From Endomicrobiales bacterium (GTDB taxonomy: Bacteria; Elusimicrobiota; Endomicrobiia; Endomicrobiales; JALOBY01): DNA of 64,000 nt. The translations under genes were made by a program, and so were the position numbers. Below, one piece after another: positions 41,601 through 59,700 of the stretch; the stretch's first letter is position 1, and each line of letters starts with the position of its first letter. The notes beneath the pieces are model-generated. The model searched no databases, was not told the origin of the DNA, and saw only the letters and a program-made list of their open reading frames with translations. The stretch lies in contig CAWCNJ010000008.1 of assembly GCA_963796955.1 (NCBI GenBank), positions 256,001 to 320,000 of the forward strand. The letters run 5' to 3'.

Positions 41601-41753
41601 AAGCTGGGCCGCGATTATTCCCGTTGTATTGAGTACCTGCGGGGCGATAAAGCAGGCGTACGATTCAAGAAAGATGCCCTGGGGGCGCCGTTGTTCCAAT
41701 TTATGAAAGAATTCTTGTTAAAAATATCCAAGTATGCTATAATTTCGCAATAA
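38685..41753 (+). CDS. mfd: transcription-repair coupling factor
   Basis: FS.RGEILD, VVHEKYGIGRY, GDVGFGKTEVA, DEEHRFGV, SATPIPRT, QLRGRIGR, RGAGNILG.EQ.G. Confidence 0.97.
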   Translation: MNGIKNYSNIVGGGKALFALQLLKEHPLVLVSVAEEYLPVLQNNLTALIAVYPFTDAIPLHFLPPAQQKGHAGALAEIAISKRGLVLTDTRTIGENTISAQLLNEKSLTLNTGTAYKYEELLARLTELGFERAEFVEDAGQFSRRGEILDVWAPGKEMPWRVVFGFNTVESIREFDAATQLSGNFHKQLSLYPLHIAAESGLEAYVPAGSAIYIDSAVNESIAERFSKFPIYANNPLTGDAIDAGFRPCTRWEGKFALFAQDLARAHREGMQGVICCANEGERERLEDLLATAGVEEGAAKLSVAPLDESFYAPALKRAYFSAQEILYKRKPVSFPKFKSGRRLETLWEISAGDFVVHEKYGIGRYQGLKRIARGDQEKEYLMIEYKHGDRIYVPPEDFRVVQKYVGTEGHRPRLYSIDTSAWEKAKTRAKAGAEKMANELLKLYAGRQTVSAPSFSTTAWERELADSFRYDETEDQVRAIEEVNRDLESPKPMERLICGDVGFGKTEVAIRAAFKVATNSAQVAILVPTTVLAEQHYNTFSDRMASFPVKVAFLSRFQGKDEQAAIIAGIKDGSVDIVIGTHRLLSKDISFKNLGLLIIDEEHRFGVKQKEKIKALKQNVHILLLSATPIPRTLSFAMANLRDLSLIETPPYGRLPIETHMSVYDEKVVKNVIEAELSRGGQVYYVHNRVQTIIESAAGIKKMVPHARVGVVHGQLSATQIEEAMYRFMHNDLDVLVASTIIESGLDIPSANTMIIEEAEDFGLAQLYQLRGRIGREKQKAYCYLFFSKGALSENASKRLQALYEFSELGSGFRLALRDTEIRGAGNILGAEQHGFVKEVGFELFSRLLAEASPKIRAAGSAKGTPEDEFTPELSFQAPALLPADYIEGDDIRISFYRRLATVRTPEDLAKIRYELTDRFGTLPQPAENLLTISDIRIIARNNRIAAITESDEALTVYLSNFITLDPENIVKLGRDYSRCIEYLRGDKAGVRFKKDALGAPLFQFMKEFLLKISKYAIISQ
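41715..41743 (+). promoter_or_regulatory. putative sigma70 promoter for the PPIase genes
   Basis: TTGTTA (41715-41720), 17 nt, TATAAT (41738-41743) with an extended TG. Confidence 0.55.
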
Positions 41754-41779
41754 TTCGCAGTATGGAGGAACAAAAGAAC

Positions 41780-42730
41780 ATGAAGAGATTTCTAGCGCTT
41801 GTTTGTTTGTCGGCAGTTGCAGTCATGGGTTGTTCCAAAGGCAAGACCATTGCGACGATAGGCTCACAGTCAATCACCGCTGAAACAGTGCAGAAACGCA
41901 TCAATGAAACACCGCCCGTCTACCGCAATTTCCTTTCCACGCCGGCCGGGAAAAAACAGTTCATCGATCTGCTGGTGCGCGAACGCGCGGTCATAGAAGC
42001 AGCGAAGAAATCGGGCTTTGAGAACCGCAAGGAATACAAAGACTCCATTACTCAATTCCAACAGGATCAGCAGCGTAAATTGAAGGAATATAAAGAAAGC
42101 CTTTTGATGGAAACCTACCTGCAGGATCTGCGTAACAGCGATCTTAAGGTCACAGGCGCGGAAATAGATAAATTTTATAACGAGCACGCGGCGGATTACC
42201 AGCACCCGGAAGAAGTCGTCGCCCGGCATATCCTGGTACCCACTAAAGAAGAGGCTGAAAAAGCCCTTGCCCGTGTGACAGCCGGAGAAGATTTCGGCAA
42301 GGTAGCGGCTGAGATGTCCACGGACTCTGTTTCAGCGAAACGCGGCGGAGAGATCGGGCCGTTCCGTAAAGGCGATCTTTTGCCTGAATTCGAAGCAGCG
42401 GTCTTTCCTCTTAAGATCGGTCAGATCTCCGGTGTAGTAAAAACACAGTTCGGTTATCATGTTATAAAGAAAGTCTCTGAGAAAGTATTGCCCGCCGTAA
42501 GCGCTGAACAGGCGAAAGACGGCATCGGCCGCCTGCTTGAAAAAGAGAAATTCGACAAATGGCTGGAAGCGACAAAAAGCAAATACGGCGTTCGCGTTGA
42601 CTATGACGCTATGAACGCGGTTCCGGTCGCACAGGAATCGGCAATGCCGGCGACACCGGACAACATGCCGCAACAGGCGCAGCCTCAGCAACAGCAGACA
42701 CCGCCCGCTAAGACGAAGAAAGCAAAGTAA
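41780..42730 (+). CDS. parvulin-type peptidyl-prolyl isomerase lipoprotein (PrsA-like)
   Basis: GGAGG RBS; lipobox VMGC; ARHILV, GEDF..VA, GG.IG.F, TQFGYHVIK. Confidence 0.9.
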   Translation: MKRFLALVCLSAVAVMGCSKGKTIATIGSQSITAETVQKRINETPPVYRNFLSTPAGKKQFIDLLVRERAVIEAAKKSGFENRKEYKDSITQFQQDQQRKLKEYKESLLMETYLQDLRNSDLKVTGAEIDKFYNEHAADYQHPEEVVARHILVPTKEEAEKALARVTAGEDFGKVAAEMSTDSVSAKRGGEIGPFRKGDLLPEFEAAVFPLKIGQISGVVKTQFGYHVIKKVSEKVLPAVSAEQAKDGIGRLLEKEKFDKWLEATKSKYGVRVDYDAMNAVPVAQESAMPATPDNMPQQAQPQQQQTPPAKTKKAK

Positions 42731-42748
42731 CAATCACAGGAGAAAACA

Positions 42749-43819
42749 ATGTTCCGTTTGTCACGCTATACCTCAATAATGGCAGTATTAATGCTGCTCT
42801 CAGGCATTTCTTTCGCCGCCGACAAGATGGTTGATAAAACTCTCGCGGTCGTTAACGGCGACGCCATAATGCAATCTGAATTCGATAAAACAGCGGCTCC
42901 GATCATGGAGCAATACACTCAGTCTGTGCCGCCCGCTTCTCAATCAGCCGATAAACTGGCTGAAATTAAGAAGAAACTTCTGGACCAGATGATCGATGAG
43001 CGCCTGTTAAAACAGGAAGCAAAAAAAGCCAAGATCAAGGTGACGAAACGCGATATAGAAGACGGCATGAAGACCGTCAAGAAACGGTTTGACAGCGAAG
43101 AAGATTTTCAGAAAGAACTGCGCCGTGAAGACATAAGCCAGCCGGCCTTTGAAAAACGCATAGAAGACCAGCTGATGGTGATGAAACTTATTGAATCCGA
43201 AGTAAAAGCAAAGACGAGCCGCCCCTCAGACCAGGATGTTAAAGCCCTGTTTGACAAGATCAACGAGCGCGTGGCGAAAGGCGTTGTAGCGTCGACCGCT
43301 CCCGCCGCGAACAAGGACGATGAAGAACTGAACGCGATGACCCGTCTTTTCACCCGCGTAGGCAATGAGCAGGTGCACGCCCGCCATATTCTGGTACAGG
43401 TAGACAAAAATGCACCCATGGCCGATAAAAGCGCTGCACTGAAAAAGATCAAAGACATCAAGTCCCAGCTGAACAAGGGAGCCGATTTTGCCGAGCTTGC
43501 CTCTAAATACTCTGACGATCCCGGCTCTAAACAGAAGGGCGGAGACCTGGGATACTTCACCAAAGGCGACATGGTCCCCGAATTTGAAAAAGCCGCCTTC
43601 GCCCTTAACGTCGGACAGGTTTCAGAACCCGTCCAGACGGATTTCGGCTGGCACATAATCAAAGTAGAAGAAAAACGCGCCGGCAAGAAAGTCTCTTTCG
43701 ACGACGCCAAGAACGACCTGACAGAGTTCCTGTTCCAGAAAGCCGCGGAAAAGAGATACGAATCCTGGCTCGCCGACATACACACAAAAGCCAGCATAAA
43801 AATAAACACAGCAGAATAA
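42749..43819 (+). CDS. SurA-like chaperone/parvulin PPIase
   Basis: Signal peptide; VDK..AVVNGD.I SurA N-domain; ARHILV, FAELA.KYSDDPGS..KGGDLG, TDFGWHIIKV. Confidence 0.9.
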   Translation: MFRLSRYTSIMAVLMLLSGISFAADKMVDKTLAVVNGDAIMQSEFDKTAAPIMEQYTQSVPPASQSADKLAEIKKKLLDQMIDERLLKQEAKKAKIKVTKRDIEDGMKTVKKRFDSEEDFQKELRREDISQPAFEKRIEDQLMVMKLIESEVKAKTSRPSDQDVKALFDKINERVAKGVVASTAPAANKDDEELNAMTRLFTRVGNEQVHARHILVQVDKNAPMADKSAALKKIKDIKSQLNKGADFAELASKYSDDPGSKQKGGDLGYFTKGDMVPEFEKAAFALNVGQVSEPVQTDFGWHIIKVEEKRAGKKVSFDDAKNDLTEFLFQKAAEKRYESWLADIHTKASIKINTAE

Positions 43820-43826
43820 ACACCCT

Positions 43827-43897
43827 GCGGGCGTAGTCTAGTGGCAAAACCCTTGCTTCCCAAGCAAGAGATGTGGGTTCGATTCCCATCGCCCGCT
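43827..43897 (+). tRNA. tRNA-Gly(CCC)
   Basis: GCGGGCG/CGCCCGC acceptor stem, anticodon arm CTTGC-TT-CCC-AA-GCAAG, GGTTCGATTCC T arm. Confidence 0.95.
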
Positions 43898-43906
43898 CCC
43901 ATGTTT

Positions 43907-44092
43907 GCGATGGGAATCGAAGCTGACCGAAGCGCCGCCGCGTAGGCGGAAAAGGTCGCCTGATAAGGCGACAGTCAGCGAGGCAGCCGGCTTCGAAGGA
44001 GCCCGACAGGGCGGGTGAGAAGGATTCCCGTTTTGCGCCCGGAATATCGATGTAGTAGTAGGTCCCGGCCAGCGAAGCAAAGCCGGGCTGCC
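43907..44092 (+). other. GC-rich multi-hairpin trailer of tRNA-Gly (possible structured RNA or repeat element)
   Basis: 15-nt exact complement of the tRNA 3' half; hairpins CCGCC/GGCGG, GTCGCC/GGCGAC and GCCC/GGGC; long-range GGGAATC/GATTCCC and GCTGAC/GTCAGC. Confidence 0.55.
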
Positions 44093-44141
44093 GTAAAGGA
44101 AGTTCCATAAAAGAAGTTCCGTAAAGGAAGTTCCCGTAAAG
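44091..44141. repeat. 14-bp tandem direct repeat, three copies plus a partial
   Basis: CCGTAAAGGAAGTT / CCATAAAAGAAGTT / CCGTAAAGGAAGTT / (C)CCGTAAAG. Confidence 0.85.
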
Positions 44142-44177
44142 AAAAAGTCTCAAGAATCGCCGCACCCATTAAACAAC

Positions 44178-45296
44178 ATGCGTCTATCAGACATCCTTAA
44201 AAACACCGGTGGCAATCAAAAACCGGCCGTCCCACAGGCGGCGCCCGCGCCCGTCTCACCCTCAGCACAACAACCCGATTTCAGACCAACCCTGTCGCAA
44301 ATGCCCAAAGCAGAAGCCCCCAGTGTTACCTCCCAGGATAACATCCTTGCCGCCTCAAATGTGTATACTAAAGCCATCAGCGAAGCAAAAACCCTTATCA
44401 ACTCAATAAGTAACGACAGCACCACCACCGACCCGATCACCTGCACTGAGCAGATCGTAAAACTTCTTGAAAACTCGAATGATGACCTGGTGATCCTTGC
44501 CGACCGCGCAACGCCCGATGTTTATCTCTACGGCCATAGCGTGAATGTGTGCATCTATTCCACCATGATGGGCAAAGGCATGGGGATGGACCATGACAAA
44601 TTAGTGCGTCTGGCGAATGCCGCCTTTTTCCATGATGTATGCCTTTCAAAACATTTGATGCTTATAATGAAGAACGGAAAGCTTGCCCAGGAAGAGGTAA
44701 ACTCTGTCCATGCCATATCGCCGCAGTGCTCTAAACTTATAGAGACGGCTATTTCAACGTTCACGCCGCTGGTGAAAACAGCGATCCTTCAAGTAATGTA
44801 CTCAATGAACGAGCGCAAATACGGCAGCCGGGAGATACCCGCCGAGCTCAACGAGGAAAACACCGAGTTCGTAAAGCTCATAACCATTACCGATATTTAT
44901 GAAGCGCTGACGCATCCGAGGCCGTACCGCGACCGCTTTCTGCCGCACGACGCGATAAAAACGATGATCAGCACGGCAGAGAACAACTTTGATCCGGTGC
45001 TGTTGAAATCCTTTATCGAAATTATTTCCTTATATCCGCTGGGCAGCTACGTCCGCCTTAACACCGACGAGATAGCCCGCGTGACCGGCGTGAACCGGGG
45101 ACTGCCCACGCGCCCGAAGATCCTTATTATCACCGACCCGTCCGGTGCGCGCCAGCCGCAAGCCAAGTTCGCGGACCTTGCCGCCTCACCAATGCTGTTC
45201 GTCAAAGAGGCCCTCGACGAAACAAAGCTTAAGCTTGCCGATAAAAAACTCATGCTGGAGCTGAAAGCCATCCGCTGGTGGGTAAAATCACTCTAA
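44178..45296 (+). CDS. degenerate HD-GYP domain protein
   Basis: HSVNV, FFHDV, D.YEALT..RPYR and YPLGS.V.LNT tail; lacks HHE and GYP; Pro/Ala/Gln-rich N-terminus. Confidence 0.8.
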   Translation: MRLSDILKNTGGNQKPAVPQAAPAPVSPSAQQPDFRPTLSQMPKAEAPSVTSQDNILAASNVYTKAISEAKTLINSISNDSTTTDPITCTEQIVKLLENSNDDLVILADRATPDVYLYGHSVNVCIYSTMMGKGMGMDHDKLVRLANAAFFHDVCLSKHLMLIMKNGKLAQEEVNSVHAISPQCSKLIETAISTFTPLVKTAILQVMYSMNERKYGSREIPAELNEENTEFVKLITITDIYEALTHPRPYRDRFLPHDAIKTMISTAENNFDPVLLKSFIEIISLYPLGSYVRLNTDEIARVTGVNRGLPTRPKILIITDPSGARQPQAKFADLAASPMLFVKEALDETKLKLADKKLMLELKAIRWWVKSL

Positions 45297-46105
45297 TGCC
45301 GCGCATTGTCCTGAAGATCGGACCGATAGCAGTATCCATCCACACGAACGAACCCGCCTGGCACCCGCTGCTTAAAGAACGTTACAAAAGTTTTTTAATT
45401 AAAAAACCATTAAAGGCCATTGCCAGCATAGAGCTGAAGACAGCTGAAGAGCGTACCGGCAAACGACAGCTCACGGTAAAGAGTACCCTCGACGGTCACG
45501 AAATATCCCGAAACGATTTCCACTCAACCTCTGATATGTACTTCAAAAGAACAAGCCTTTCATGCCTTCCAAATGTTTACTCCTTTGATTCGTGGCTGAG
45601 GGTATTCATAACTGCCGCGTATAGCACCAGGGGTATGGTATTGGTGCACGGGGCCTCTACCGGTTTTCGCCGTAAGGCCTATCTGTTCGCGGGCGTATCG
45701 GGGCGGGGCAAATCGACCATCACACGGAAGCTCGGCATTGATGCCGCTTTGAGCGATGAACTGACCCTTTTGTCGACAAAGGGGAAGAAAGTTTTCGCCC
45801 ACAGCACACCCTTCTGGGGTGAATTAGCCCGGCCGGAAACTGCAGGGCCTGTCTCATTGCCGCTGGGCCGCATATACTATTTAAAACACGGTCCCAAACT
45901 CAGCGACCGGAGTTTAACGCCGGCAGGATCATTTGCATATTTTATGACGACCATACTATTTTTTTCGACCGATGCGGGATCCGTTAACGGCATGCTGGAT
46001 ACGGCAGTCAATATAATAAAACATACCGGGGCCGCCACCCTTGCTTTTTCACTCAAGACCGGGCGCGAACAGATATGCAGATTATTGGAGGAACGTCTCT
46101 CATGA
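45296..46105 (+). CDS. HprK-related P-loop kinase-like protein (RiPP-cluster type)
   Basis: LVHGA, LFAGVSGRGKST (Walker A), SDE, STPFWGE; TAATG coupling to the upstream gene. Confidence 0.75.
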   Translation: MPRIVLKIGPIAVSIHTNEPAWHPLLKERYKSFLIKKPLKAIASIELKTAEERTGKRQLTVKSTLDGHEISRNDFHSTSDMYFKRTSLSCLPNVYSFDSWLRVFITAAYSTRGMVLVHGASTGFRRKAYLFAGVSGRGKSTITRKLGIDAALSDELTLLSTKGKKVFAHSTPFWGELARPETAGPVSLPLGRIYYLKHGPKLSDRSLTPAGSFAYFMTTILFFSTDAGSVNGMLDTAVNIIKHTGAATLAFSLKTGREQICRLLEERLS

Positions 46106-46368
46106 CGAAAGAACACATGTACCGGATAAAACCGGGCCTTGCCTGGCGCGTGATAGGGGAAACGGCCTTCGTCTTCGACCCGGCGAGATCGGAACTCCAT
46201 GAATTAAGCGAGTCAGCCACCGTGATCTGGCAGAGCCTTGATAAAAACGGTTCCGCCAACACAGCCGCGAAACGAATTTCCGACGAGTTCGACGTAACTG
46301 TCGAACGGGCGCTCCGCGATACGGGAACGCTGTTGACGGATCTTCAGGCACTGGGATTGATAGAATAA
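46102..46368 (+). CDS. PqqD-family RiPP recognition element (RRE)
   Basis: 88 aa; WRVIGE..V.D......HEL.ESA..IWQ.LD, ...I.DEFDV..E.A.RD...LL..L...GLIE. Confidence 0.9.
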   Translation: MTKEHMYRIKPGLAWRVIGETAFVFDPARSELHELSESATVIWQSLDKNGSANTAAKRISDEFDVTVERALRDTGTLLTDLQALGLIE

Positions 46369-46369
46369 T

Positions 46370-47404
46370 ATGCCAAATGTCATGGACAAGCTGTTTGCGT
46401 ATACGCAGAGACAACGCATCCCGCTGATGTGCACCTTTGAACTGACCAAAAACTGTAACCTGCATTGCCGCCACTGCTATATCCCGCACAGAGAACGCAC
46501 GCAAAAAACGCTTTCCACCGCTCAGATCATGACTGCGCTCGACCAGCTGGCACGCATGGGAACGCTGTACCTGGTTTTCACCGGGGGCGAGATCTTTCTC
46601 AGGAAAGATCTGCCGGCTCTGTGCAGACATGCCCGGAAGCTGCATTTTGATATCCGCCTTTTTACGAACGGGACCCTGTTGACGCCTGCCATGGCGAAAC
46701 AACTTGCCCGGGTCGGCGTAAGCGCGGTAGAAATTAGCATATACGGAAAACCGGACACACACGATGCTATTACCGGTCACACAGGCTCTTGGAAAAGATC
46801 GATGGATTCGATCAAAACTCTGCAAAAGCACGGCCTTAAAGCGGTCATTAAAATGCCGCTGATGACTGAAAATTATGAAGATAAAAAATACATTGAAGCG
46901 CTTTCAAAAAAACTTAATGTTAAACTTCAACTAGACGCTGTTATAACAACAATGTCGGATGGAAACAAAACACCATTATCAATGCGGCTGTCTGGAAAAA
47001 CCCTTCAAAAAATATTTAGATCCCACGACAACGGAACAGCCCCGGATGCCGGCGAAACAGACCTGATATGTTCAGCAGGAAGGAATATGCTGGCAATAGC
47101 GGCGAATGGTGATCTGTTGCCATGTATTCAACTGCCGTTTAAGCTAGGAAATATAACAAAAAGAACGATCCCTGGTTTATGGAATAATAATAAGCTCCTC
47201 GTTAAAAAATTGTTATCTATCAAGGCCTCCGATATTGCCGAGTGCAAGGAATGCGCGATGGTCTCACAGTGCCAACGGTGTCCGGGAATGGCACTGGTTG
47301 AAGACGGCTCTCTGTCCGGGCCATCGACCGCGGCCTGTTTATTGACCAGGGCAAGATATGGCAGCAAAACACCAACTAATCTAAATATTAGATCACATTC
47401 ATGA
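46370..47404 (+). CDS. radical SAM/SPASM peptide maturase
   Basis: CNLHCRHC, FTGGE, TNGTL, SIYG....HD.ITG..GS; SPASM CSAG...I.ANGDLLPC and CKEC.....CQRCPG...C. Confidence 0.92.
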   Translation: MPNVMDKLFAYTQRQRIPLMCTFELTKNCNLHCRHCYIPHRERTQKTLSTAQIMTALDQLARMGTLYLVFTGGEIFLRKDLPALCRHARKLHFDIRLFTNGTLLTPAMAKQLARVGVSAVEISIYGKPDTHDAITGHTGSWKRSMDSIKTLQKHGLKAVIKMPLMTENYEDKKYIEALSKKLNVKLQLDAVITTMSDGNKTPLSMRLSGKTLQKIFRSHDNGTAPDAGETDLICSAGRNMLAIAANGDLLPCIQLPFKLGNITKRTIPGLWNNNKLLVKKLLSIKASDIAECKECAMVSQCQRCPGMALVEDGSLSGPSTAACLLTRARYGSKTPTNLNIRSHS

Positions 47405-47570: not shown

Positions 47571-47720
47571 ATGACACTTAGAAAGAAGCGAAAACCTTAC
47601 CTCCCACCCAAAATTTCATCACAAAAAGTAATTGAGACCGCGGCTCTTGCCTGCGGTAAATGTATAGGCGGAAATCCAATATATCAGGCGGCTTGTAGAA
47701 GTTTTTCTAAGATGTCCTAA
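47571..47720 (+). CDS. putative RiPP precursor peptide, 49 aa (absent from the ORF track)
   Basis: GAGGAG RBS at 47559-47564; MTLRKKRKPYLPPKISSQKVIETAALACGKCIGGNPIYQAACRSFSKMS*; YxxP leader motif, three Cys. Confidence 0.85.
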   Translation: MTLRKKRKPYLPPKISSQKVIETAALACGKCIGGNPIYQAACRSFSKMS

Positions 47721-47743
47721 AAACGCAGTCCGGTACATCCTGC

Positions 47744-50700
47744 ATGAGCGACACGAAAGTATTCTTAGCGACCGGCGGATCCATGCGGCCCCTGTTTTCT
47801 TCGGGTGAGCCGGTCTGGGCTGTTCCTATATCGAATAGTGAGGCGCTGCGTCCAGGTGATATTGTTATATATACGCGCGCGCGCGCAAAGTTTATGCACC
47901 GCGTTCTGTCCGTATCCGGTGACACATGCACAGTATTCAGCGACTCAGCCGTCTGCCAGCCACACACCATATCGGTCAATTCTATAATCGCAAAACCAAT
48001 TAGCCGCATGCAGGGAACACACGGCCTCCTCTGGGGCCTGGCCTGTAACGCGTTCTATCAGGTCTCCCGTTTTCTTAAACACCGCGCCTCCAGAATTTTA
48101 TCGGTTGCCGCCGTCTTAACTATTGCCTACTGCCTATTGCCTCTTACTTCACAAGCATATACCCGCGTTAAAACCGTTGAATTCAATTTCGGCGGCTATT
48201 ACTCGGCCACAAACGTTGCCAGCTGGACGCCGCCCTACGTTACCATAAACCTGCCGGATGCTATCGCTTCATCTCCCATCAAGGACGCGGTGCTTGATAT
48301 TCAATACCAATCGATCCCTGCCGTCACAAACAAGGACAGTCCAACTACTGCTATCGACGTACTATTCTCAACAGGCAATGCCGCCGGTGGAGCAGCTATA
48401 GACGGCATTGGTACGGGCGTTACTATGCCCACAAGTTCCAGAAAGAACGACATTATGTGCCTGCGTTTTGATGCAACATCAAAAATGACGGCCTGGAGCA
48501 ATACGCCGTATAGCATGAAAATAACCCTTACGGGCAGTAACGGTATTTTGTACAACTTGTATTCAGCCAAGCTGTTCATCACTTACTACTATGATGATAC
48601 GGCAACAACACAGGTAAAAACCGTACACTTTCCGCTTTTTTCGACGTCCGCAGACGGCAAGTCCGGCGTGGCATCCTACCTTGCCCAAAGAGGCAACACA
48701 ACAAGCGCGCTTTATTACGATGCTGAAATACCGGAAATATCCTTCACGCGCAAGCAGGCATGGTTCGAGGTGCGCGGATATCGCCAATCCGGCGGTTCCG
48801 CGACTGACGGCACGATATACGCCAAGATCGGCGCAAATGCCAAACAGGGAACAACGACGCTTGACGGTTCTATGACTGGCTCCTACTGGATCAGGTACCT
48901 CACATCTACCGGAACACCTGCGGGTTTCGCTGAAAACACATACCAGACGCTTAACGTGGTAACCGCTACCAATGCCACCATGAATGTTCTTGGCGGTGAA
49001 CTGGTGGAGACCTACGAGTATAACGCCACAACATTCCCGCAGGAAAAAACTCTTAACTACTTCTTGTGCCAGTCTACCGGCGGCGCCAGCGACCCGGCGA
49101 ACTTCACGGTACCGCTGTATATTAACGAATCCACCGTCACAATAAAACGCATTTACGCCCTGATGTATGGTTCTTATAACAACACCGGCGCTGCCCTGAA
49201 CCTTACCGTGAACTCTAAGATCAAGGGCCAGGCCCTTACAGCGCGGACCTATTCGCTGGCAACAACGGTAACACAGGCGTCAGGCTTTGTGCTTTATCAC
49301 GACCTTACGCAGGGGGCAACCTGGTGGGTGAACGGCTCCTCAGTAACGTTGTCATGGAACGCTAACGCCAACCTTGGCGGTATCGGCGCTGAACTGATAG
49401 TAACTTACACCTACAACAACGACGACTCCTTTACAGACTCTTACAGGATCTGGGGCGGGGAAACCACTAACCAGGTCACGAACGGCACTTATTACAACTC
49501 GAATTTAAACCTGTACTTCCCTGATCCTGAAGTGCCAACCGGCAAGAAAACACTCAGGTCGGCATTTTTCAGATATAATTTTATTCAGGGCGATTCCGCG
49601 GTCACAGCCAACCCGCAAACGACGATCGGCGTCAACGGCTCTGTTCCCGACAGGCAGGTGGTTCAGCACTACGGCACCACAGAAAACTTCCACGCTGTCG
49701 CATTATATGATTTTACCAAAAACATAACACCTGCCAGCACAACTGTTGCCGGAAATTTTACTTTGTCGAACGATCCATTCAATACAGCGGGCATAGCGTC
49801 AGTCATTTACGAGTACAAGCCGGTGCCGGTCGCGCCTTCGGCTTTGACCCAATACCAAAATGATGACGTTACGATAATGCCCCTGGGCGATTGGGAAAAC
49901 CTGCAGGGAAAACATTTAAGATTTACATTTTCAAGTAAAATAACGGGCGATTCCTTATACCCTGTTGTAGAAGTTAAGCCGGCTGCCGGTTCCTTCGACG
50001 GCATTACGAACCTTTCGACCGGAACGGTTCAAACCTATAACGGCTCTTCTCTATCGGCTGATATTTTCATAAGCACGGGCCAGGGTGCGTATCAATGGCG
50101 CGCATCGGTTGTTGGGAGCGCCGGCCGCTCGGCATGGACAAATTTCGGAGCGCCCGGCACTACACACTTCGGCATAGACCTTTCTACACCGGCCATTCCA
50201 GTCCTCGCGACGCCATCAAGCGGAACCGCGACATCAGATCAAACACCAACGCTTACATGGAACGCCTTGACAGATACCGGCGGGTCAGGACTAAGCGGTT
50301 ACCTGCTTCAAATAGCTACTTCGACAAATTTTAACCCGGTGTTTTATAGCTCTATTACTGCAAACACCTCATTCACCTCTACCTTTACCTGGACGCAAGC
50401 ACCCTATTATTGGAGAACACGGTCCCAGGACGCGGCAGGCAACTTCAGCGCGTATTCAGACACTTGGACGATAATTATCGACTCGACGCCGCCGCTGCAG
50501 GTTACAACCTACTTGGCGCCAGCTAATCAGGCATTCAGCTCATCAACGATCCAGACATTCAGCTGGGCTTCCTCCACCGACACGCCGGCTGGGGTCCAAA
50601 ACTACATACTGCAACTTTCTACGGCCGCTGATTTTTCCGCTATTGCTTACTCGTCGGTAACAGTCTCGACCGGCGCAGTAATGAACATTACGCAATCATC

Positions 50701-53700
50701 ATATACGTGGCGCGTTAACGTGCAGGATTGGGCGAACAACTACACAACATCAACACTGAAATACAGCGTGGTGATAGATTCCTCGCCACCGCCTCCGGTA
50801 ACAACGATATCAACTCCGTCTGACGACTCTGCCTCCAATGTGCAGCTCCAAACTTTCAACTGGACAGGTGTTGTCTCATTACCCGCCCCAACCAAGGCGT
50901 ATTTTCTGCAGGTTTCAACGGCGCCGGATTTCTCGGTCATCAACTATTCATCAGCTACTGCAACAAATAGCGCGCAGTTGACACTTAATCAGTCATCCTA
51001 TACCTGGCGCGTGAATGTGCAGGATTACGCGTTGAATTACACGACGAGCCCGGCAGTCTTTCATGTGATCGTCGATACTACGCAACCGGCACAGGTGACA
51101 AATTATATTGCTCCGGGCAACCAGGTGTTCAGTTCAACTACATCCACTACGTTTTCCTGGTCGGCCTCCACCGACACGCCTGCCGGCATTAAAAATTACA
51201 TCCTTCAGCTGTCGACGGCACCGGATTTCAGCGGCACGATCATATCTTCAACGACGCCGGCCTTAAGCGCCCAGATGTCTCTGAGCCAGTCGTCTTATAC
51301 CTGGCGCGTAAACGCCCAGGACTGGGCTAACAACTACACAACCTCGACCTTAAAATACAGCGTCGTTATCGACTCATCACCTCCGCCGCAGATAACTACG
51401 TTATCTACGCCGTCGAACGGCCTGGCGACAAACACCCAGACACAGACCTTCAGCTGGGTGGGTGTGGCATCTTTCCCTGCGCCGATACAAAACTATATAC
51501 TGCAGCTGTCAACTGCGGCTAATTTTACGGGTACGATAATCTCATCTGTTACCGCTGCGACAAGCGCCGTGCTCACGCTTAACCAGTCGTCTTACACCTG
51601 GCGAGTTAACGTGCAGGACTACGCCCTGAATTACACTACCAGCGCAGCGACCTTCAACCTTGTTATCGACACAACACCGCCGCCGGCGGTTTCTACATTA
51701 CTGGGTCCTTCGCCGGACGGCCTTGCCTCAGCCACTACTACGCAGGTGTTCTCCTGGACGGGAGTGACGGATACGCCTGCGCTGGTTAAAAACTATATCG
51801 TTCAAGTTTCGACCGCGGGGGATTTCTCTAAGATCGCATATTCCTCAGTAACCGCGAACACCAGTGCCACGATCGCGCTTATCCAGTCTTCGTACACCTG
51901 GCGTGTGAATGTTCAGGATTATGCCTTGAATTACACAACCTCACCCTCCGTTTATCATATCGTTATAGATACGACGCCGCCACCGGCCGTATCCACGCTC
52001 AATGGCCCTGCTAACAATGTTCCAGTTAACAACCTTAACCAAACATTCTCCTGGACCGGCGTAACAGATCTTCCGTCGATGTTGAAGAATTACATAGTGC
52101 AGCTTTCGACTGCGTCTGATTTCTCCAAGATAGCCTACTCATCCGTAACCGCGCTCAACAACGCGACTATCAGCCTGAACCAATCCTCCTACACCTGGCG
52201 CGTAAATGTGCAGGACTATGCCCTGAACTACACCACTTCATCCGCCGTATTCTTTGTGCTGGTTGATACCACCCTGCCCGTTATTACGAATTTGCAGGCA
52301 GGGGACGCAACGTGGCGAAGCGCTCCTGGCAACACCTACAACGTCCAATTTGGCGACCAGGGCTTCGCTCAGTCAAAGCTTAATTCCATCCAGTACGAAG
52401 TTATCACCGCTACCGGCTTTACGGCTATCCCCTGGACTGACATAGCCGCGCCGCCCATCAACCAGCCGACATATGTAACGCCGTGGCAAGTGAACTTTAA
52501 CGCCCTGGTAGAGGCGGTTACTAATTTCGTCTCCATTCGCGCGACGGATTTGGCGGGCAATACGTCAACGTATACCAACGCCTTCTACGTGCTGAAAGAT
52601 GTGTCCGTGCCGAGTATCGTGGACAATCAATTCGGTGATACCATCTGGCGCAACGCCGCGGGCGCCACATATGACCTGGATTTCTTTGATAACGGCGGAT
52701 CGGGCATCGACCATGTAAATTACAGCGACACATACTATGTGAACAATACTCCCGGCGCCTCAGTCTTTACGAATCGCACACTCATATCGCAGGCAACCCT
52801 GAACGCGACCACTTCGTACATCACCACATGGCAGATACCCGATTTCAATCTGCTGTTGGAAGGGAAAAACTTTATCGGCGTTACCGTCTATGACCGTGCG
52901 GGCTTAAGCCAGACGCTGTCAAGCTATCCGGAACCTTTCTACATTTTAAAAGATACAACGGCGCCGACGATAATAAACGGGCAGGCCGGCGACAACACAT
53001 GGCGGCCAGCCAACACAGGTCAGTACAATGTTGACTTTCAGGATGCCTCAAGCGGTTCGGGCGTTGCGGGCTTTGATATGCTGGCTTCCACCGTCGCGGG
53101 AGGCACGCAATCCCTGTTAATACCCTGGACGCAGGTGCTCTCAACCAACACCTACCTCTATACACAGTCGTGGCCCATTCCAGACGCGGTATTTACCGCG
53201 CTTCGCTCAGGCCACGAGCCGAACCGCATATCGCTGCGCACCTACGATTTTGCAGCTAACACCTCTGCGGTAACAACAGATGCCTTTTATATCCTGAAAG
53301 ACACGATCCCACCGACCATGTCTAACAACCAGGCAGGAGATAACACCTGGCGGACACTGGGCGGCACAACGTACAACGTCGGCTTTGCCGATGCTGAATC
53401 GTGGGCTGCTGGAGCGCGCTACACCGTGCGCAACGGGCCGACGACCGGAGACACGGAATGGGCGCCCAGCTGGCAGCCGATCTTCTCTTCGACCGGAACA
53501 CCGTCCTATAACACGAACTGGCAGCTAGACTTTAATAGCTTATGGGGAGCCACTAACTATGTATTCGTTCAATACTGGGATGTGGCCGGAACAACAATAA
53601 CACCGACAACGCCTGTCTTCTATATTAAAAAAGACAATGTCGCTCCGACGGTACAGAACAATCAATCCGGAGATAACACGTGGCGCAATGCGCCGGGAAC

Positions 53701-56700
53701 CGCCTACGACGTAGACTTCCAGGACTCCATATCAGGCGTTTCTCAGGCAGACTATATGGTGAAAGACGCTGTCGGCAACACCGTGATCCCCTGGACAAAT
53801 ATATTTACAAACCCGGCAGGGCAAGCGTCATACACCACCAACTGGGCCTTATCCGTCGCCACCTTTACCGCGCTGCTTGATGGCGCATCGAACTTTGTGT
53901 ATGTGCGGGACTACGACGTCGCCGGAAACCTTACGGCGCCCGTCAATCCGCAATTTTATATCCTTAAAGATACAGACCTGCCGACGGTGCAACTTGGCGC
54001 CCAACGATACTTCATGTCCTCACACGATCTTGGCCTGCAAAACTATCCTGATTTCTTCGATCCAAAAAACAGCCGAACACCGGGGGCGTCCGGCCTTGCC
54101 TCTATACAGTATTACATATCTACCGGTACCGCGATGACCGGCACTGCGGTTGAGAACTGGACATCTATAGCGGGACTTACCCCCGGGACCACCTGGTTTA
54201 CCAACCAGTGGTCGGTCAACTTCGCCCCTCTGCCCGGAGCGACGACATGCTACGTTTCTGTTCAGGCTACCGATCTTGCCGGGAACACAACGATCTTTAT
54301 GGATGCCTTCAGGGTTTTCAAATCAACGATCCCGGCCCCTGTGATCACCGACAACCAGACCGGGGATTATACCTGGTATACCTCTTCAAATTCATTCACT
54401 ACCAAGCAATATGATGTCGATTTTCGATCCTTCGATAACGATAACATTTCATCTGTCACCGTTCAGTCTTGGAGCGGACTGGCACAGACTGGCTCTAAGT
54501 ACGTTGACTGGACCGCCGTTGTTTCCACCGGTACGGTATTGTCCTACACCCAGAACTGGACATTGACACCCGCACCCTTCACCGGCTTTGCACCGGAATA
54601 TATCTGGAACCTGCTGCATGAAGGCACCAACTACATCACTGTCCAAGCATACGATATGGCCTTGGACTCCAGCACTAAGCAAGATGCCTTCTTTGTCCTG
54701 AAAGACACCAACGGCCCAACGATCACCAACAACCAGTCAGGCGATCTTACTTGGCGCAACGCGGTCGGTACTACCTATAACGTCGATTTCCAGGATTTGA
54801 TATCGGGCACGACCGAGGCGGATTATCTTATTAAAGATGGTTCAGGCAACCAGCTCCTCGGCTGGACCCCGGTATTCACTAATTCGGGCGGTGTGGGAAG
54901 CTACACCACGGACTGGCCGATATCGGCCGGGGCCTTCACTGCACTGCCCGACGGTTCCACCGGGTACGTTTACCTGCGCTCGTTCGATAAGGCCGGCAAT
55001 GCAACCACGAATCTCACACCGTCCTTCTACATCCTGAAAGACACAGACACACCGTTCATCAACGTAGCCGCCCAGAAGTACTACATGTCTTCGCACGACT
55101 TCAGCCTCAAGAACTATGCCGGCTTCTTTGACCCTAAGAACAGCTATACGCCCGGCGCTTCAGGATTGAACACGATCCAGTATTTTATTTCTACCGGCAC
55201 AGCCATGACCGGAACACCGGTTAAGAACTGGACGACTATCCCCGGCTTAACGGTGGGGACAACGTGGTTCACTAATAACTGGCAGATCGATTTCGCCTCC
55301 CTGCCAGGCGCGGTGACCTGCTACGTTTCGCTTTCCGCCGCTGACCTTGCAGGCAACACCTCAACTTTTGTTGACGCCTTCAGGGTCTTTAAGTCCACTA
55401 TAGCCGCACCGGTGATTACCGATAACCAGACCGGCGATTACACCTGGTATACCTCTTCAAATTCATTTACCGCCAAGCAATATGACGTCGATTTCCAATC
55501 CTTCGATAACGACTACATTTCATCCGTTACCGTTCAAGCTTGGAGCGGCCTTGCACAAAGCGGCTCTAAATATGTTGACTGGACCGCCGTTGTTTCTACC
55601 GGCACCGTATTGTCTTATACCCAGAACTGGGCGTTGTCGCCCGCACCCTTCACCGGCCTTGCGCCTGAATACCTCTGGAACCTGCTGCATGAAGGCACCA
55701 ATTACATCACCGTCCAGGCATACGATATGGCCTTGGATTCCACCACGAAACAAGATGCCTTCTTCGTCTTGAAAGACACCAACGGCCCAACGATCACCAA
55801 CAACCAGTCAGGCGACAACACCTGGCGCAATACGGTCGGCACTACCTATAACGTTGATTTCCAGGACTTGATATCAGGTACCACTGAAGCTGATTACATG
55901 ATCAAAGACGGCTCCAATAATCAACTCCTCGGCTGGACCCCGGTATTCACTAATGCCGGCGGTGTGGGAAGCTACACCACGGACTGGCCGATATCGGCCG
56001 GCGCCTTCACCGCACTACCGGACGGTTCGACCGGCTACGTTTACCTGCGCTCGTTCGATAAGGCCGGCAATGCAACCACGAATCTCACACCGTCCTTCTA
56101 CATCCTGAAAGACACAGACACACCGTTCATCAACGTAGCCGCCCAGAAGTACTACATGTCCTCGCACGACTTCAGCCTTAAGAACTATGCTACCTTCTTT
56201 GACCCTAAGAATAGCTTTACACCCGGCGCTTCCGGTTTGAACGCTATCCAATACTTTATCTCCACCGGCACCGCCATGACAGGCACACCGGTGAAGAACT
56301 GGACAACCATACCAGGCCTAACGGTGGGAACAACATGGTTTACAAATAACTGGCAAATAGACTTCGCTGCCCTGCCGGGCGCTGTTACCTGCTACGTATC
56401 TGTCTCAGCCGCCGATCTTGCCGGCAACACCTCAACCTTCGTTGATGCCTTCAGGGTCTTTAAGTCCACTATAGCCGCACCGGTGATCACCGACAACCAA
56501 TCTGGCGATTACACATGGTACACCTCTTCAAATTCATTCACCGCCAAGCAATACGATGTCGATTTCCAATCCTTCGACAACGACTACATTTCATCCGTTA
56601 CCGTCCAAGCCTGGAGCGGCCTTGCACAAAGCGGCTCTAAATATGTTGACTGGACCGCCGTTGTTTCTACCGGCACCGTATTGTCTTATACCCAGAACTG

Positions 56701-59700
56701 GGCGTTGTCGCCCGCACCCTTCACCGGCCTTGCGCCTGAATACCTCTGGAACCTGCTGCATGAAGGCACCAACTACATCACTGTCCAAGCATACGATATG
56801 GCCTTGGATTCCAGCACTAAGCAGGATGCCTTCTTCGTCCTGAAGGACACCAACGGCCCAACGATCACCAACAACCAGTCAGGCGACAACACCTGGCGCA
56901 ATACGGTCGGTACTACCTATAACGTTGATTTCCAGGACTTGATATCAGGTACCACTGAAGCTGATTACATGATCAAAGACGGCTCCAATAATCAACTCCT
57001 CGGCTGGACCCCGGTTTTCACTAATTCGGGCGGGGTGGGAAGCTACACCACGGACTGGCCGATATCGGCCGGGGCCTTCACTGCACTGCCCGACGGTTCC
57101 ACCGGGTACGTTTACCTGCGCTCGTTCGATAAGGCCGGCAATGCAACCACGAATCTCACACCGTCCTTCTACATCCTGAAAGACACAGACACGCCGTTCA
57201 TCAACGTAGCCGCCCAGAAGTACTACATGTCCTCGCACGACTTCAGCCTTAAGAACTATGCTACCTTCTTTGACCCTAAGAATAGCTTTACACCCGGCGC
57301 TTCCGGTTTGAACGCTATCCAATACTTTATCTCCACCGGCACCGCCATGACAGGCACACCGGTGAAGAACTGGACAACCATACCAGGCCTAACGGTGGGA
57401 ACAACATGGTTTACAAATAACTGGCAAATAGACTTCGCTGCCCTGCCGGGCGCTGTTACCTGCTACGTATCTGTCTCAGCCGCCGATCTTGCCGGCAACA
57501 CCTCAACCTTCGTTGATGCCTTCAGGGTCTTTAAGTCCACTATAGCCGCACCGGTGATTACCGATAACCAGACCGGCGATTACACCTGGTATACCTCTTC
57601 AAATTCATTTACCGCCAAGCAATATGACGTCGATTTCCAATCCTTCGATAACGACTACATTTCATCCGTTACCGTTCAAGCTTGGAGCGGCCTTGCACAA
57701 AGCGGCTCTAAATATGTTGACTGGACCGCCGTTGTTTCTACCGGCACCGTATTGTCTTATACCCAGAACTGGGCGTTGTCGCCCGCACCCTTCACCGGCC
57801 TTGCGCCTGAATACCTCTGGAACCTGCTGCATGAAGGCACCAATTACATCACCGTCCAGGCATACGATATGGCCTTGGATTCCACCACGAAACAAGATGC
57901 CTTCTTCGTCTTGAAAGATACCAACGGCCCAACGATCACCAACAACCAGTCAGGCGACAACACCTGGCGCAACGCGGTCGGCACTGTTTACAACGTCGAT
58001 TTCCAAGACCTGATATCGGGCACGACCGAGGCTGATTATCTTATTAAAGACGGTTCAGGCAACCAGCTCTTCGGCTGGACACCGGTATTCACTAATGCCG
58101 GCGGTGTGGGAAGCTACACCACGGACTGGCCGATATCGGCCGGCGCCTTCGCCGCCCTGCCTGACGGCTCGACAGGATATGTGTACCTGCGCTCGTTCGA
58201 TAAGGCCGGCAATGTTACCACCAACGCCTTGCCTTCCTTCTACATACTTAAGGACACTGATGTACCGACCGTTCAAGTAAATGGTCAAACATTTTTCCAG
58301 GGCGCCTACCAATTCGGCGCAATACACGACGTGGATTTCTTTGACCCGAAAAACAGCAACACACCGGGGGCATCTGGCCTTAGTTCTATCCAATACTTCA
58401 TTTCCACCGGGCCTGCCATGACAGGAACGGTCATGAAGAATTGGACGTCTATCCCTGGCTTAGTAACAGGCAGCACGTTTTACACAACAAACTGGGCAAT
58501 AGATTACACCGCTCTAACGCAGCTGGTCACCGGATACGTATCGGTACAAGCGGTCGACCAGGCAGGCAATACTACAACGTACCTGGACGCCTTCCGGGTA
58601 TTAAAAACCACCGCGACCGCACCCTTGATATCCAATAACCAGACAGGGGATTTCAAATGGTATGGCTCATCAACAGCCATGCTTTCATCAACCTACAATA
58701 TGAGCTTCCAGTCGATAGCGGGCCCCGCTGTATATATCTCGTCGGTTTCTGTTCAGATATACAGCAAACCCGGAAGTTCAGGCACAAAACTGGTGGATTG
58801 GACAACCGTTGTTTCCACAGGCAATGTATTAACATATTCTGTCCCGTGGCAGTTGAAACCGTCAACATGGACAACCCAGCCCGATTATTTCTGGAATTTG
58901 ATGCAAGAAGGTACAAACTATATTTCTGTACAGGTGCTGGACATCAATGCGGATTCTGCAACGGCAACAGATGCATTTTTTATTCGAAAAGACACAACAA
59001 CTCCCGGCATTATAAACAATCAAACAGGCGACAACGTCTGGCGCAACACAGCTGCGGCGGTATACGACGTCGATATAAATGACCTTACGTCAGGAACCAC
59101 TGAGGCTGATTACAAAATAATGGACGCTTCCAAAGTCACTACATTGGTTGACTGGACCCCGTTCTTAACCAACCCCACAGGCGTTAAATCGCAAACCGCG
59201 AATTGGGGAATAAACCCTGCTGATTTTGCCCAGCTACCAAGCGGCGCCACAAGCTATGTTTATGTTCGGGCCTTCGACCTGGCAGGCAATACCACGCAGC
59301 CTATCAACGCACAGTTTTATATTCTGAAGGACACAAATGTACCGACAGTGTCGGTAAACGCTTCAAACTACTACCTCTCGTCGCGTGACTTTGGAACTCA
59401 GAACTATGCCGGTTTCTATGACCCGCTGGTACAGGGCAGAACACCTGGCGCGTCAGGGTTGAACGCTATCCAATACTTTATCTCTACCGGCACCGCGATG
59501 ACCGGCACGCCGGTTAAGAACTGGACGGCAATACCCGGCTTAACGGTGGGGACAACGTGGTTCACTAATAACTGGCAGATCGATTTCGCCTCCCTGCCAG
59601 GCGCGGTGACCTGCTACGTTTCGCTTTCCGCCGCTGACCTTGCAGGCAACACCTCAACTTTTGTTGACGCCTTCAGGGTCTTTAAGTCCACTATAGCCGC

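Follow-up and report, generated by a model that had tools for sequence, protein, structure and literature searches.

The closest known enzyme to the peptidase described here, likened by gene set, motifs, and residue spacing, is LppS, a SipW homologue that acts as the leader peptidase of the linear polyphosphorylated peptides (LPPs), a group of peptides made on ribosomes and then modified post-translationally (RiPPs) of the Bacillota (Nat Commun 2026; PMC13381572). According to the available text of that paper, LppS cleaves the leader of LppA only with the PqqD-like RiPP recognition element (RRE) LppB, and its S29A, H68A, and D93A variants are dead. The LPP precursors carry the motif YxxPxVLxHQxIxFETxxS and are cut after F-E-T, with F at -3 and T at -1, and the conserved gene set consists of SpI and the RRE together with an HprK-like kinase, an NTP transferase, and an exporter resembling MsbA (PMC13381572). 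The peptidase considered here is found in a stretch of 64,000 nucleotides from an Endomicrobiales bacterium of the Elusimicrobiota (assembly GCA_963796955.1, contig CAWCNJ010000008.1, positions 256,001 to 320,000; hereafter, the window), where it forms the beginning of a single stop-free open reading frame (ORF) of 4,620 amino acids (aa), read from the sequence at 47744-61606 on the + strand, which continues into a giant repeat protein.

A second point of reference is provided by the lasso clusters of the paeninodin type, in which the linear precursor has an invariant C-terminal Ser that is phosphorylated by HprK-like kinases (PadeK/ThcoK/PsmK) (PMC9266682, in its available part). The RiPPs of the lipoprotein pathway (PMC13056109) were also considered, and were set aside as a different system on the basis of the part of that paper available. 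The participation of LppS-type peptidases in RiPP maturation is already published, as the available text of PMC13381572 attests. The literature searched yielded no account of the fused architecture or of an Elusimicrobiota cassette: a preprint on giant genes (10.1101/2023.11.21.568195) makes no mention of signal peptidase, S24, or S26, a 2023 review of RiPP leader proteases (PMC10885120) contains no signal peptidase, S24, S26, SipW, or Sec11, and the available text of PMC13381572 lacks the terms radical SAM, Elusimicrobi-, Acidobacteri-, transmembrane, and membrane anchor.

The reading favored here, with a probability of roughly 0.6, is that the ORF joins the final enzyme of an LPP-like RiPP cassette to the product of the gene after it, and that this enzyme is cytoplasmic, is tethered by the signal peptide of the giant protein, and trims the precursor peptide. 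The new elements are the variant of the pathway with a radical SAM (rSAM) enzyme in the Elusimicrobiota, and the recurrent fusion of the peptidase to the signal peptide of a neighboring giant protein.

The peptidase domain and its family

The fused part of the ORF is organized as follows (a slash marks a cut site here and below):

47744..48013, + strand: Sec11/SipW-type, SpI-like and S26-like peptidase domain (aa 1-90), with Ser13, His52, and Asp67, assigned by profile, model, and structure comparison
47780-47782, + strand: Ser13 codon, in the GGSMRP box (sequence)
aa 36-43, + strand: RPGDIVIY box (sequence)
47897-47899, + strand: His52 codon, in the HRV box (sequence)
47942-47944, + strand: Asp67 codon, in FSDS, a degenerate GD box (sequence)
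48008, + strand: Met89 codon (sequence)
48014..48091, + strand: C-terminal helix (aa 91-116), amphipathic and cationic, with G-x-x-G-L-L and then RFLKHRASR (aa 109-117), from the AlphaFold2 (AF2) model and the composition of the tail
48092..48157, + strand: h- and c-region of the Sec-type signal peptide of the giant protein (aa 117-138), ILSVAAVLTIAYCLLPL-TSQA, from the alignment to split orthologues
48158..49456, + strand: conserved N-terminal head of the mature giant protein, starting with Y-T-R-V-K-T-V-E-F-N-F-G, from an alignment of 29 sequences and AF2

All the elements listed by an earlier, sequence-only reading of this DNA (the boxes, the basic stretch, the hydrophobic core, SQA/Y, and Met89) were found in their places when the sequence was read again.

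A phmmer search with aa 1-138 against 1.84 billion representative sequences returned 71 matches at E <= 1e-3, mostly proteins of 98-180 aa with the same boxes; two of the 71, the repeat proteins P0002 and P0046, were set aside. In an alignment of the window sequence with 55 short homologues (56 rows), M14, P16, H52, R53, and D67 are invariant, with both H52 and D67 present in 56/56 rows, while the column of Ser13 contains Ser in 41 rows, Cys in nine, and a gap in six. A Ser/Cys exchange is expected at the position of a catalytic nucleophile.

Cysteine replaces the catalytic Ser (GGCMRP) in nine of the 50 aligned family members, and also in eight of 28 loci of the Elusimicrobiota and Ignavibacteria (L022-24, L026, L027, L030, L031, and L034), which suggests that a Cys-His variant of the S26-like peptidase exists within the family.

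When the profile of the 56-row alignment was compared with solved structures, the best E-values were obtained for SEC11A (7.1e-12), SEC11C (8.1e-12), and SpsB (1.9e-7), followed by Escherichia coli LepB (~0.03) and LexA (~0.3). The match to SEC11A brings the SM.P, HRV, and GD boxes of the two into register, with GGSMRP aligned to SGSMEP and the GD-type box to KGD. The AF2 model built on the same alignment (pLDDT 95.5, pTM 0.83) has the signal-peptidase/LexA fold, and consists of a beta domain up to residue 85 and one long helix (91-131). Its best Foldseek match is SpsB (E 4.6e-4, probability 1.0), and all of the top 41 structural matches, without exception, are S24/S26 proteins. The Z scores of VIA-align are 10.4 for SpsB, 9.9 for SipA, 9.5 for LepB, 9.0 for LexA, and 7.8 for SEC11C, and the superposition on SpsB has an rmsd of 1.6-1.8 Å across 87-88 residues. 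The proposal of the sequence-only reading, that this is a Ser-His S26 domain of the SipW/ER type with a degenerate GD box, is upheld by the conservation in the alignment, the profile match to SEC11A, and the structure comparison, and the S24/S26 fold on which that proposal depended was indeed found by Foldseek.

The self-cleaving S24 type (LexA, UmuD, and lambda CI), which has a Ser-Lys dyad, was rejected, given that the position of the base is occupied by His in 56/56 rows and the profile match to LexA reaches only an E of ~0.3. The N-terminal membrane anchor of the S26B family is absent from the window protein, in which residue 1 already belongs to the domain and TIGR02228 is matched from model position 32 onward. 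Residues 1-90 are a Ser-His-Asp peptidase of the ER/archaeal type (S26B-like) without the N-terminal anchor of that family.

A word-indexed homologue search with aa 1-138 at near lengths gave 0/19 candidates at E <= 1e-3, and a profile search of the alignment among longer proteins recovered a single 533-aa PF14907 fusion, which is not a useful census of long fused forms. No paralogue of the peptidase or of the giant head was found in this genome.

Recurrence of the fusion and the internal signal peptide

The ORF is a real, natural gene fusion. Nine of 60 relatives searched with aa 1-138 have a match at E <= 1e-5, one of which (G008) is a different, 380-aa protein and was set aside, leaving eight relatives with the cassette. 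Both alternatives raised by the sequence-only reading, fused and split genes, exist among these relatives: six other species (G013, G005, G009, G006, G007, and G003) have the same in-frame junction, with a fused open frame of 4,174 aa in G006 and a frame break further along, within the giant part, in G003, while in G004 and G012 (same GTDB family) a peptidase gene of 116-127 aa precedes a distinct giant gene, which has a Met and a signal peptide of its own. The fused relatives, which represent six GTDB families in addition to that of the window, are 33-42% identical to the window protein and retain S13, H52, and D67. In the split forms, the peptidase (~110-140 aa) stops just past the basic helix, and the giant gene starts with its own Met and signal peptide.

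The conserved start of the giant protein was located in 31 loci, with one genome per species, 30 of them in Elusimicrobia/-ota or Endomicrobia and one in Ignavibacteria. The peptidase genes among these loci, together with those of the window, L008, and L048, make up the 28 that were counted, and they are arranged as follows:

7 of 28 loci: peptidase fused to the giant gene
7 of 28 loci: peptidase directly ahead of the giant gene (81-169 nt from the stop codon of the peptidase to the RIKTVE motif)
13 of 28 loci: peptidase 1.1-3.2 kb upstream of the giant gene, with other genes between them
1 of 28 loci: peptidase fused to other, unrelated cargo, a Sortilin/BNR propeller that bears a FlgD_ig tail (G089)

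The fusion in G089 (L048, G089:C51, 3857-6571) is joined via a hydrophobic segment to exported cargo, and the precursor of that locus reads ...FETHALGC... and ends in Ser. The genes that separate the peptidase from the giant gene include an rSAM gene and an Rrf2 regulator in the Elusimicrobiales and an ABC transporter in L027, as well as an AAA ATPase and an IS200 transposase in L022-24. No peptidase was detected in the flank examined of the giant gene in six of the 31 loci (L033, L036, L037, L038, L042, and L043), two of which lie on short or cut contigs.

The separating genes of L022 (4867-5884), L023 (4361-5650), and L024 (4989-5896), which form the sister clade of the fused forms, encode an AAA_22/STAND-like ATPase and an IS200-type Y1 transposase.

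The fusion events were counted on a tree of the giant head because the tree of the peptidase domain (35 rows, 116 columns) did not resolve. The head tree is based on the first 450 residues of the mature protein (32 rows, 456 columns, LG+G4, quick search), with L021, L037, and L008 omitted, each having less than 300 aa of the giant protein. It places the window and L016-L020, five of its six fused relatives (L021 being the sixth), in one clade (SH-aLRT 96), sister to L022-24 (100), whereas the fused metagenomic protein P0019 pairs with the split L026 (100), and P0015, which is fused via a linker of ~130 aa, pairs with the split Ignavibacteria locus L034 (100). Both P0015 and P0019 are single predicted proteins, known here as protein sequence alone. 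A single clade of all eight fused rows is rejected by the AU test (p 8e-7), and the sequences point to at least four fusion events, at least three of them on the giant family and one on the BNR propeller of G089.

Elsewhere in the phylum, L049 (G312:C84) has a distant, N-terminally extended S24/S26-like domain that is apparently fused to a region resembling family-2 glycosyltransferases (judged by eye), the product being 772 aa from the first start codon in an open frame of 782 aa. This would be a further fusion type of this peptidase superfamily.

In the window, the predicted cut between A138 and Y139 (TSQA/Y), which falls between 48157 and 48158, comes directly after the 17-residue hydrophobic core. 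The segment has an h-region with a Kyte-Doolittle (KD) hydropathy of 2.52, with four K/R in the 12 residues that precede it, and ends in S-Q-A/Y. In the split forms, an ordinary signal peptide at the N-terminus occupies the segment ahead of the conserved (A)TRIKTVE(Y/W/F)NFG, and the fused and split forms are alike in their median 12-residue KD (2.52 vs 2.55), in the median number of K+R just ahead of the h-region (4 vs 3), and in having an allowed -3 and a small -1 residue within five residues of RIKTVE (7/7 fused, 25/25 split). The basic n-region, the hydrophobic h-region, and the small -3/-1 residues of a Sec signal are thus all present in the window, but the segment is not N-terminal, starting at around residue 109 of the ORF, in a position homologous to the split N-termini. 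The identification of this segment as a signal peptide in the sequence-only reading gains from its equality with the split counterparts in how hydrophobic the h-region is, in the basic n-region, and in the small residues at -3 and -1. Two LepB genes of this genome score above the curated cut-off (145 and 119 bits; cut-off 47).

For the head of the mature giant protein, the predicted structure comprises three packed jelly-roll-like beta sandwiches (AF2 pLDDT 86.3, pTM 0.89), the first beta strand of which is the mature N-terminus (the RIKTVE strand). Foldseek returned only loose matches (TMq <= 0.22) for this head, among them single-chain C1q/TNF trimers, triple-jelly-roll capsids (nepovirus, STIV), and BcsB.

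Each of the three sandwiches closes with an (L)xxTYxY(D/N) strand. At the other end of the gene, the stop at 61606 falls in sequence that is out of register, and the same repeat units, which are Ig-like, carry on in two further frames, one spanning 61519-62076 and the next running from 62049 to the end of the window. The continuation of the repeats beyond this stop implies a giant gene of more than 5,400 codons with two frame breaks, which are either assembly errors within the repeats or real disruptions.

The cleavage of this segment has to be weighed against its retention as an uncleaved signal-anchor, in which case the giant protein would be a type II inner-membrane protein and the peptidase its permanent cytoplasmic tail, the whole forming one molecule. 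A large N-terminal domain ahead of the signal sequence is the usual layout of a signal-anchor, and the helix at 91-131 is unbroken in the AF2 model, while two of the seven fused forms have the less canonical Leu at -3 (LYA in L016 and LEA in L017). The retention of an acceptable cut site in all seven fused forms, as in the split ones, together with the helix-breaking Pro at -6, the h-region of 17 residues in the window, and the position of the first strand of the head right after the site, makes this reading unlikely.

An improbable reading is that the fusion is a tolerated accident without consequence, with the peptidase part inactive, or with an internal start, such as Met89, yielding two products. 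The gaps between the genes of split neighbors are very short, which makes the loss of a stop codon easy, and at least three fusions on the giant family, plus one on another cargo, are what would be expected of a neutral, easily made event. The retention of all the catalytic residues in a fused clade that has diverged over six further GTDB families (33-42% identity), however, points to purifying selection on the fused enzyme. Met89 is present in the window, but its counterpart in the other fused forms is F, L, P, or M one position off, no Shine-Dalgarno-like site is found ahead of it, and there is no other ATG, GTG, or TTG between it and the h-region. Met89 was rejected on these grounds as a separate start, a role that the sequence-only reading had kept in view for the relatives, in which it is not a conserved start codon.

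As for the topology, no hydrophobic segment is found ahead of the peptidase domain, the sole window of transmembrane (TM) grade being aa 118-136, on its C-terminal side. The stand-alone homologues end in a tail of ~40 residues and stop at the basic helix, and the tails in the 56-row alignment (that of the window included) have a median of 7 K+R against 1 D+E, with a median maximum hydrophobic moment of 0.56. The tail of the window protein has 5 K+R and 0 D+E. Among the 55 homologues, without the window, 47 have no 19-aa window with KD >= 1.6. The lack of an export signal of its own, combined with the amphipathic basic helix, suggests that the peptidase resides in the cytoplasm, with this helix holding it to the surface of the membrane, a placement based on the missing signal and the precedent of LppS. 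Self-processing, which the sequence-only reading had offered as an alternative, is disfavored because the membrane would separate the cut site from the domain, which lacks its own export signal.

A very improbable arrangement is a helical hairpin that would place the peptidase outside the cell as a dedicated processor of the giant protein, cutting SQA/Y in cis or in trans, with helix 93-107 running out-to-in, RFLKHRASR inside, and helix 117-135 running in-to-out. Dedicated processing peptidases have models in SipW for TasA and SipA for pilins, and S26 enzymes normally work at the trans face. The basic stretch sits between two hydrophobic stretches, as the hairpin requires, and the peptidase and giant genes are linked in 27/28 peptidase loci (the 28th being the fusion to another exported protein) and are repeatedly fused. 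The 90-aa domain, though, has no signal or TM segment ahead of it, and no more than ~14 residues of the first "helix" are hydrophobic; in stand-alone homologues, this helix is amphipathic and basic, rather than TM-grade (47/55). Regulators, ATPases, IS200, or rSAM genes separate the peptidase from the giant gene in 13 loci, while the precursor is always adjacent, and giant genes are also found without a nearby cassette. The genome, in addition, has its two LepB genes, and LppS, which was studied experimentally, cleaves a cytoplasmic peptide, as described in the available text of PMC13381572.

That a lost stop codon or a frameshift created the fusion in this metagenome-assembled genome, an assembly of 2.1 Mb in 11 contigs that is 81% complete and has two apparent frame breaks in the 3' repeats of the same ORF, is a negligible prospect in the face of the identical in-frame junction in independent assemblies of six other species.

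The cassette, the precursor, and the proposed mechanism

The genes upstream of the fused ORF are the following:

41762-43819, + strand: tandem pair of genes for SurA/PrsA-like peptidyl-prolyl isomerases, immediately upstream of the cassette
44178..45296, + strand: HD_5 (HD-GYP-like) protein, the 5'-most of the cassette (PF13487, 7.7e-10)
45278..46105, + strand: candidate HprK-like kinase, ScmC/HprK-related (TIGR04249 2.9e-5, TIGR04355 4.4e-5, TIGR04352 4.7e-4; below cut-off)
46075..46368, + strand: PqqD-family RRE, a peptide chaperone (PF05402, 4.8e-12; weak matches to lasso-PqqD and HPr-rel-A PqqD)
46370..47404, + strand: rSAM/SPASM maturase (PF04055 1.6e-28, PF13186 3.4e-9)
47571..47720, + strand: gene of a 49-aa precursor peptide, with a GAGGAG Shine-Dalgarno-like site upstream (sequence)

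The order on this strand is Mfd, the two isomerases, HD_5, the HprK-like candidate (for which there is no Pfam match), PqqD, rSAM/SPASM, and the 49-aa ORF. The set of the RRE and HprK-like genes is also found in the loci of the relatives, and the HD_5 gene occupies the same place in L022-24, L026, and L030. The isomerases may be chaperones for the giant exported protein.

Two GGDEF genes precede HD_5 in L030 (54-3600), and HD_5 is fused to GAF and PilZ in L026 (2136-3824), which hints at the control of the peptide and giant-protein locus by cyclic di-GMP.

The precursor gene precedes the peptidase in 27/27 assessable loci, whatever follows the latter, with its stop codon 9-151 nt ahead of the catalytic motif; L031 could not be assessed, due to the end of its contig. 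The window precursor contains Y10-x-x-P13, V-I-E-T23, A-A-L-A-C28-G-K-C31, C42, and a C-terminal Ser49. No NCBIfam or Pfam family matches the precursor. The precursors, of 45-60 aa, are conserved, with Y-x-x-P-x-(I/V/F/M/L), S/T-E-K, (I/F)-E-(T/Q/K/S), A-A-L-(A/S/G)-C-x-K-C, and a third Cys, and K8, Y10, P13, K19, E22, A24, A25, L26, C28, G29, K30, C31, and S49 are invariant in 19 aligned sequences. The C-terminal Ser and the three Cys (C-x-K-C ... C) are found in all 28 precursors read (those of the window, L008, L016-L046, and L048). The three Cys and the C-terminal Ser, together with the HprK-like gene, lead to the prediction of C-terminal phosphorylation and thioether-type crosslinks made by the rSAM enzyme. 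The role of RiPP leader peptidase, which the sequence-only reading had suggested, appears plausible by analogy with LppS (PMC13381572, in its available text), given the homologous-looking precursor that always lies ahead of the peptidase.

A lipobox reading of A-A-L-A-C was rejected, since the Leu occupies -2 rather than -3 and a hydrophobic h-region is missing from the leader.

In the proposed mechanism, the first ~116 residues of the ORF would be the last enzyme of a cassette composed of the HD protein, the HprK-like kinase, the PqqD RRE, the rSAM/SPASM enzyme, the precursor, and the SpI-like peptidase, and the remainder would be the next gene, encoding a giant repeat protein that is exported and carries a head of three jelly rolls. 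The amphipathic basic helix leads directly into the h-region of the signal peptide of the giant protein, so that the peptidase stands in for the n-region. The segment would be inserted N-in/C-out via Sec, one of the two LepB enzymes would cut after Ala138, releasing the giant protein outside, and the peptidase would remain on the cytoplasmic face, anchored by the cleaved signal peptide. The PqqD RRE would hold the YxxP leader while the peptidase removes it from the precursor, most likely after (I/F)-E-T23, by homology with LppA/LppS, or alternatively after A-L-A27. The cut T23/A24 is ranked above A27/C28 because LppS cuts after F-E-T, and A-L-A27/C28, a first choice under the signal-peptidase -3/-1 rule, was demoted to second place by this precedent. 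A single translation product should then give both a membrane-anchored enzyme and a giant exported protein, an arrangement that would offer a natural case for the study of LepB action on an internal signal peptide and of the fate of the remnant that carries the enzyme.

Several observations weigh against this reading. The domain remains below the curated cut-offs when aa 1-138 are compared with PF00717 (16.8 bits, E 0.0055; cut-off 23.3) and TIGR02228 (26.5 bits, E 5e-6; cut-off 51.85), and the same is true of the SipW model NF046067 (18.2 bits; cut-off 190), while seven relatives of the window peptidase pass PF00717 (27.4-33.2 bits). To our knowledge, all solved S26 enzymes act on the trans side of the membrane. 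A window of KD >= 1.6 is present in the other eight of the 55 homologues; in five of these it falls on the C-terminal helix, so some members of the family may be truly membrane-inserted, and another of the eight (P0068) is a truly N-anchored, SipW-like protein. The giant gene occurs without a cassette inside 6 kb in four loci (L033, L038, L042, and L043). The public reads are neutral as to the fusion, given that the only contig from a run with 12% of the sampled words matches 47695-47856 without differences, and a second run has a partial match of 34 nt, neither of which covers the junction (48014-48157). LppS, finally, has at its N-terminus a helix, alpha-1, that contacts the sheet formed by the RRE and the leader, whereas the window protein has only 12 residues before Ser13, with a strand at 5-8 and no helix; in the available text of PMC13381572, this contact is called secondary.

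It is possible, if doubtful, that the fusion was favored by selection and is not neutral. In that case, the RiPP pathway would make up one functional unit with the giant surface protein, the peptidase being delivered 1:1 to the Sec site by which the giant protein is exported and the cleaved signal peptide escaping degradation to persist as the anchor of the enzyme, and the matured peptide, with its three Cys and phosphorylated C-terminus, would be released there to become a partner, cofactor, or covalent decoration of the jelly-roll head. Should this be true, the recurrent, independent fusions would mark a general coupling of LPP-like peptides with giant, adhesin-like proteins. The repeated fusion, kept over several families, is in itself a "Rosetta-stone" hint at a joint function of the peptide product and the giant protein of the surface.

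Comparison with known systems

The S26B enzymes (SEC11A/C, the archaeal SPase I of TIGR02228, and Bacillus SipW) share the SM.P, HR(V/I), and GD-type boxes and the fold of the window domain. They have an N-terminal anchor and work on the trans side, whereas the window domain has no anchor and scores below the curated cut-offs of these families, and its likely substrate is a RiPP leader, rather than a Sec signal peptide.

The tailoring systems of the lasso peptides, as far as the available text describes them, have in common with the window an HprK-like kinase, a PqqD-type RRE, and a precursor with an invariant C-terminal Ser, and the modification of this residue by the lasso kinases fits the invariant last Ser of the window-family precursors. 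The lasso systems have a cyclase and a B2 cysteine protease, in the place of which the window has the rSAM/SPASM enzyme and the S26-like peptidase.

The LPP pathway is the nearest of these systems, and the locus represents a relative of it that contains a radical SAM enzyme. A SipW/Sec11-like RiPP leader peptidase was first shown in 2026, in Bacillota only, according to the available text of PMC13381572, and the locus extends this enzyme class to the Elusimicrobiota. In that text, LppS, like the window peptidase, is a small homologue of the archaeal/ER-type signal peptidases with a Ser/His/Asp catalytic set, and the Ser-His spacing is 39 residues in both (S29/H68 in LppS, S13/H52 in the window). 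In both pathways, the RRE is a discrete PqqD-like protein, and there is an HprK-like kinase as well as a [Y/W]xxP leader that ends in F-E-T or (I/F)-E-T, and LppS acts on a cytoplasmic peptide, as is proposed for the window enzyme. The spacing of the leader motif is two residues shorter in the window family than in the LPP motif, and three invariant Cys, along with a C-terminal Ser, characterize the core, where the LPPs have phosphorylated Ser3. The window cassette adds an rSAM/SPASM enzyme and an HD protein to the LPP set described in the available text, while the NTP transferase and MsbA-like transporter of that set were not found among the window ORFs at 38685-47404; among the other loci, L046 has both nucleotidyltransferase and ABC transporter genes, L033 has the former, and L027 the latter. 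Unlike LppS, as that text presents it, the window peptidase shares one reading frame with a giant exported protein, to whose signal peptide it is joined, a rare architecture in which a cytoplasmic enzyme would be built ahead of the export signal of another protein.

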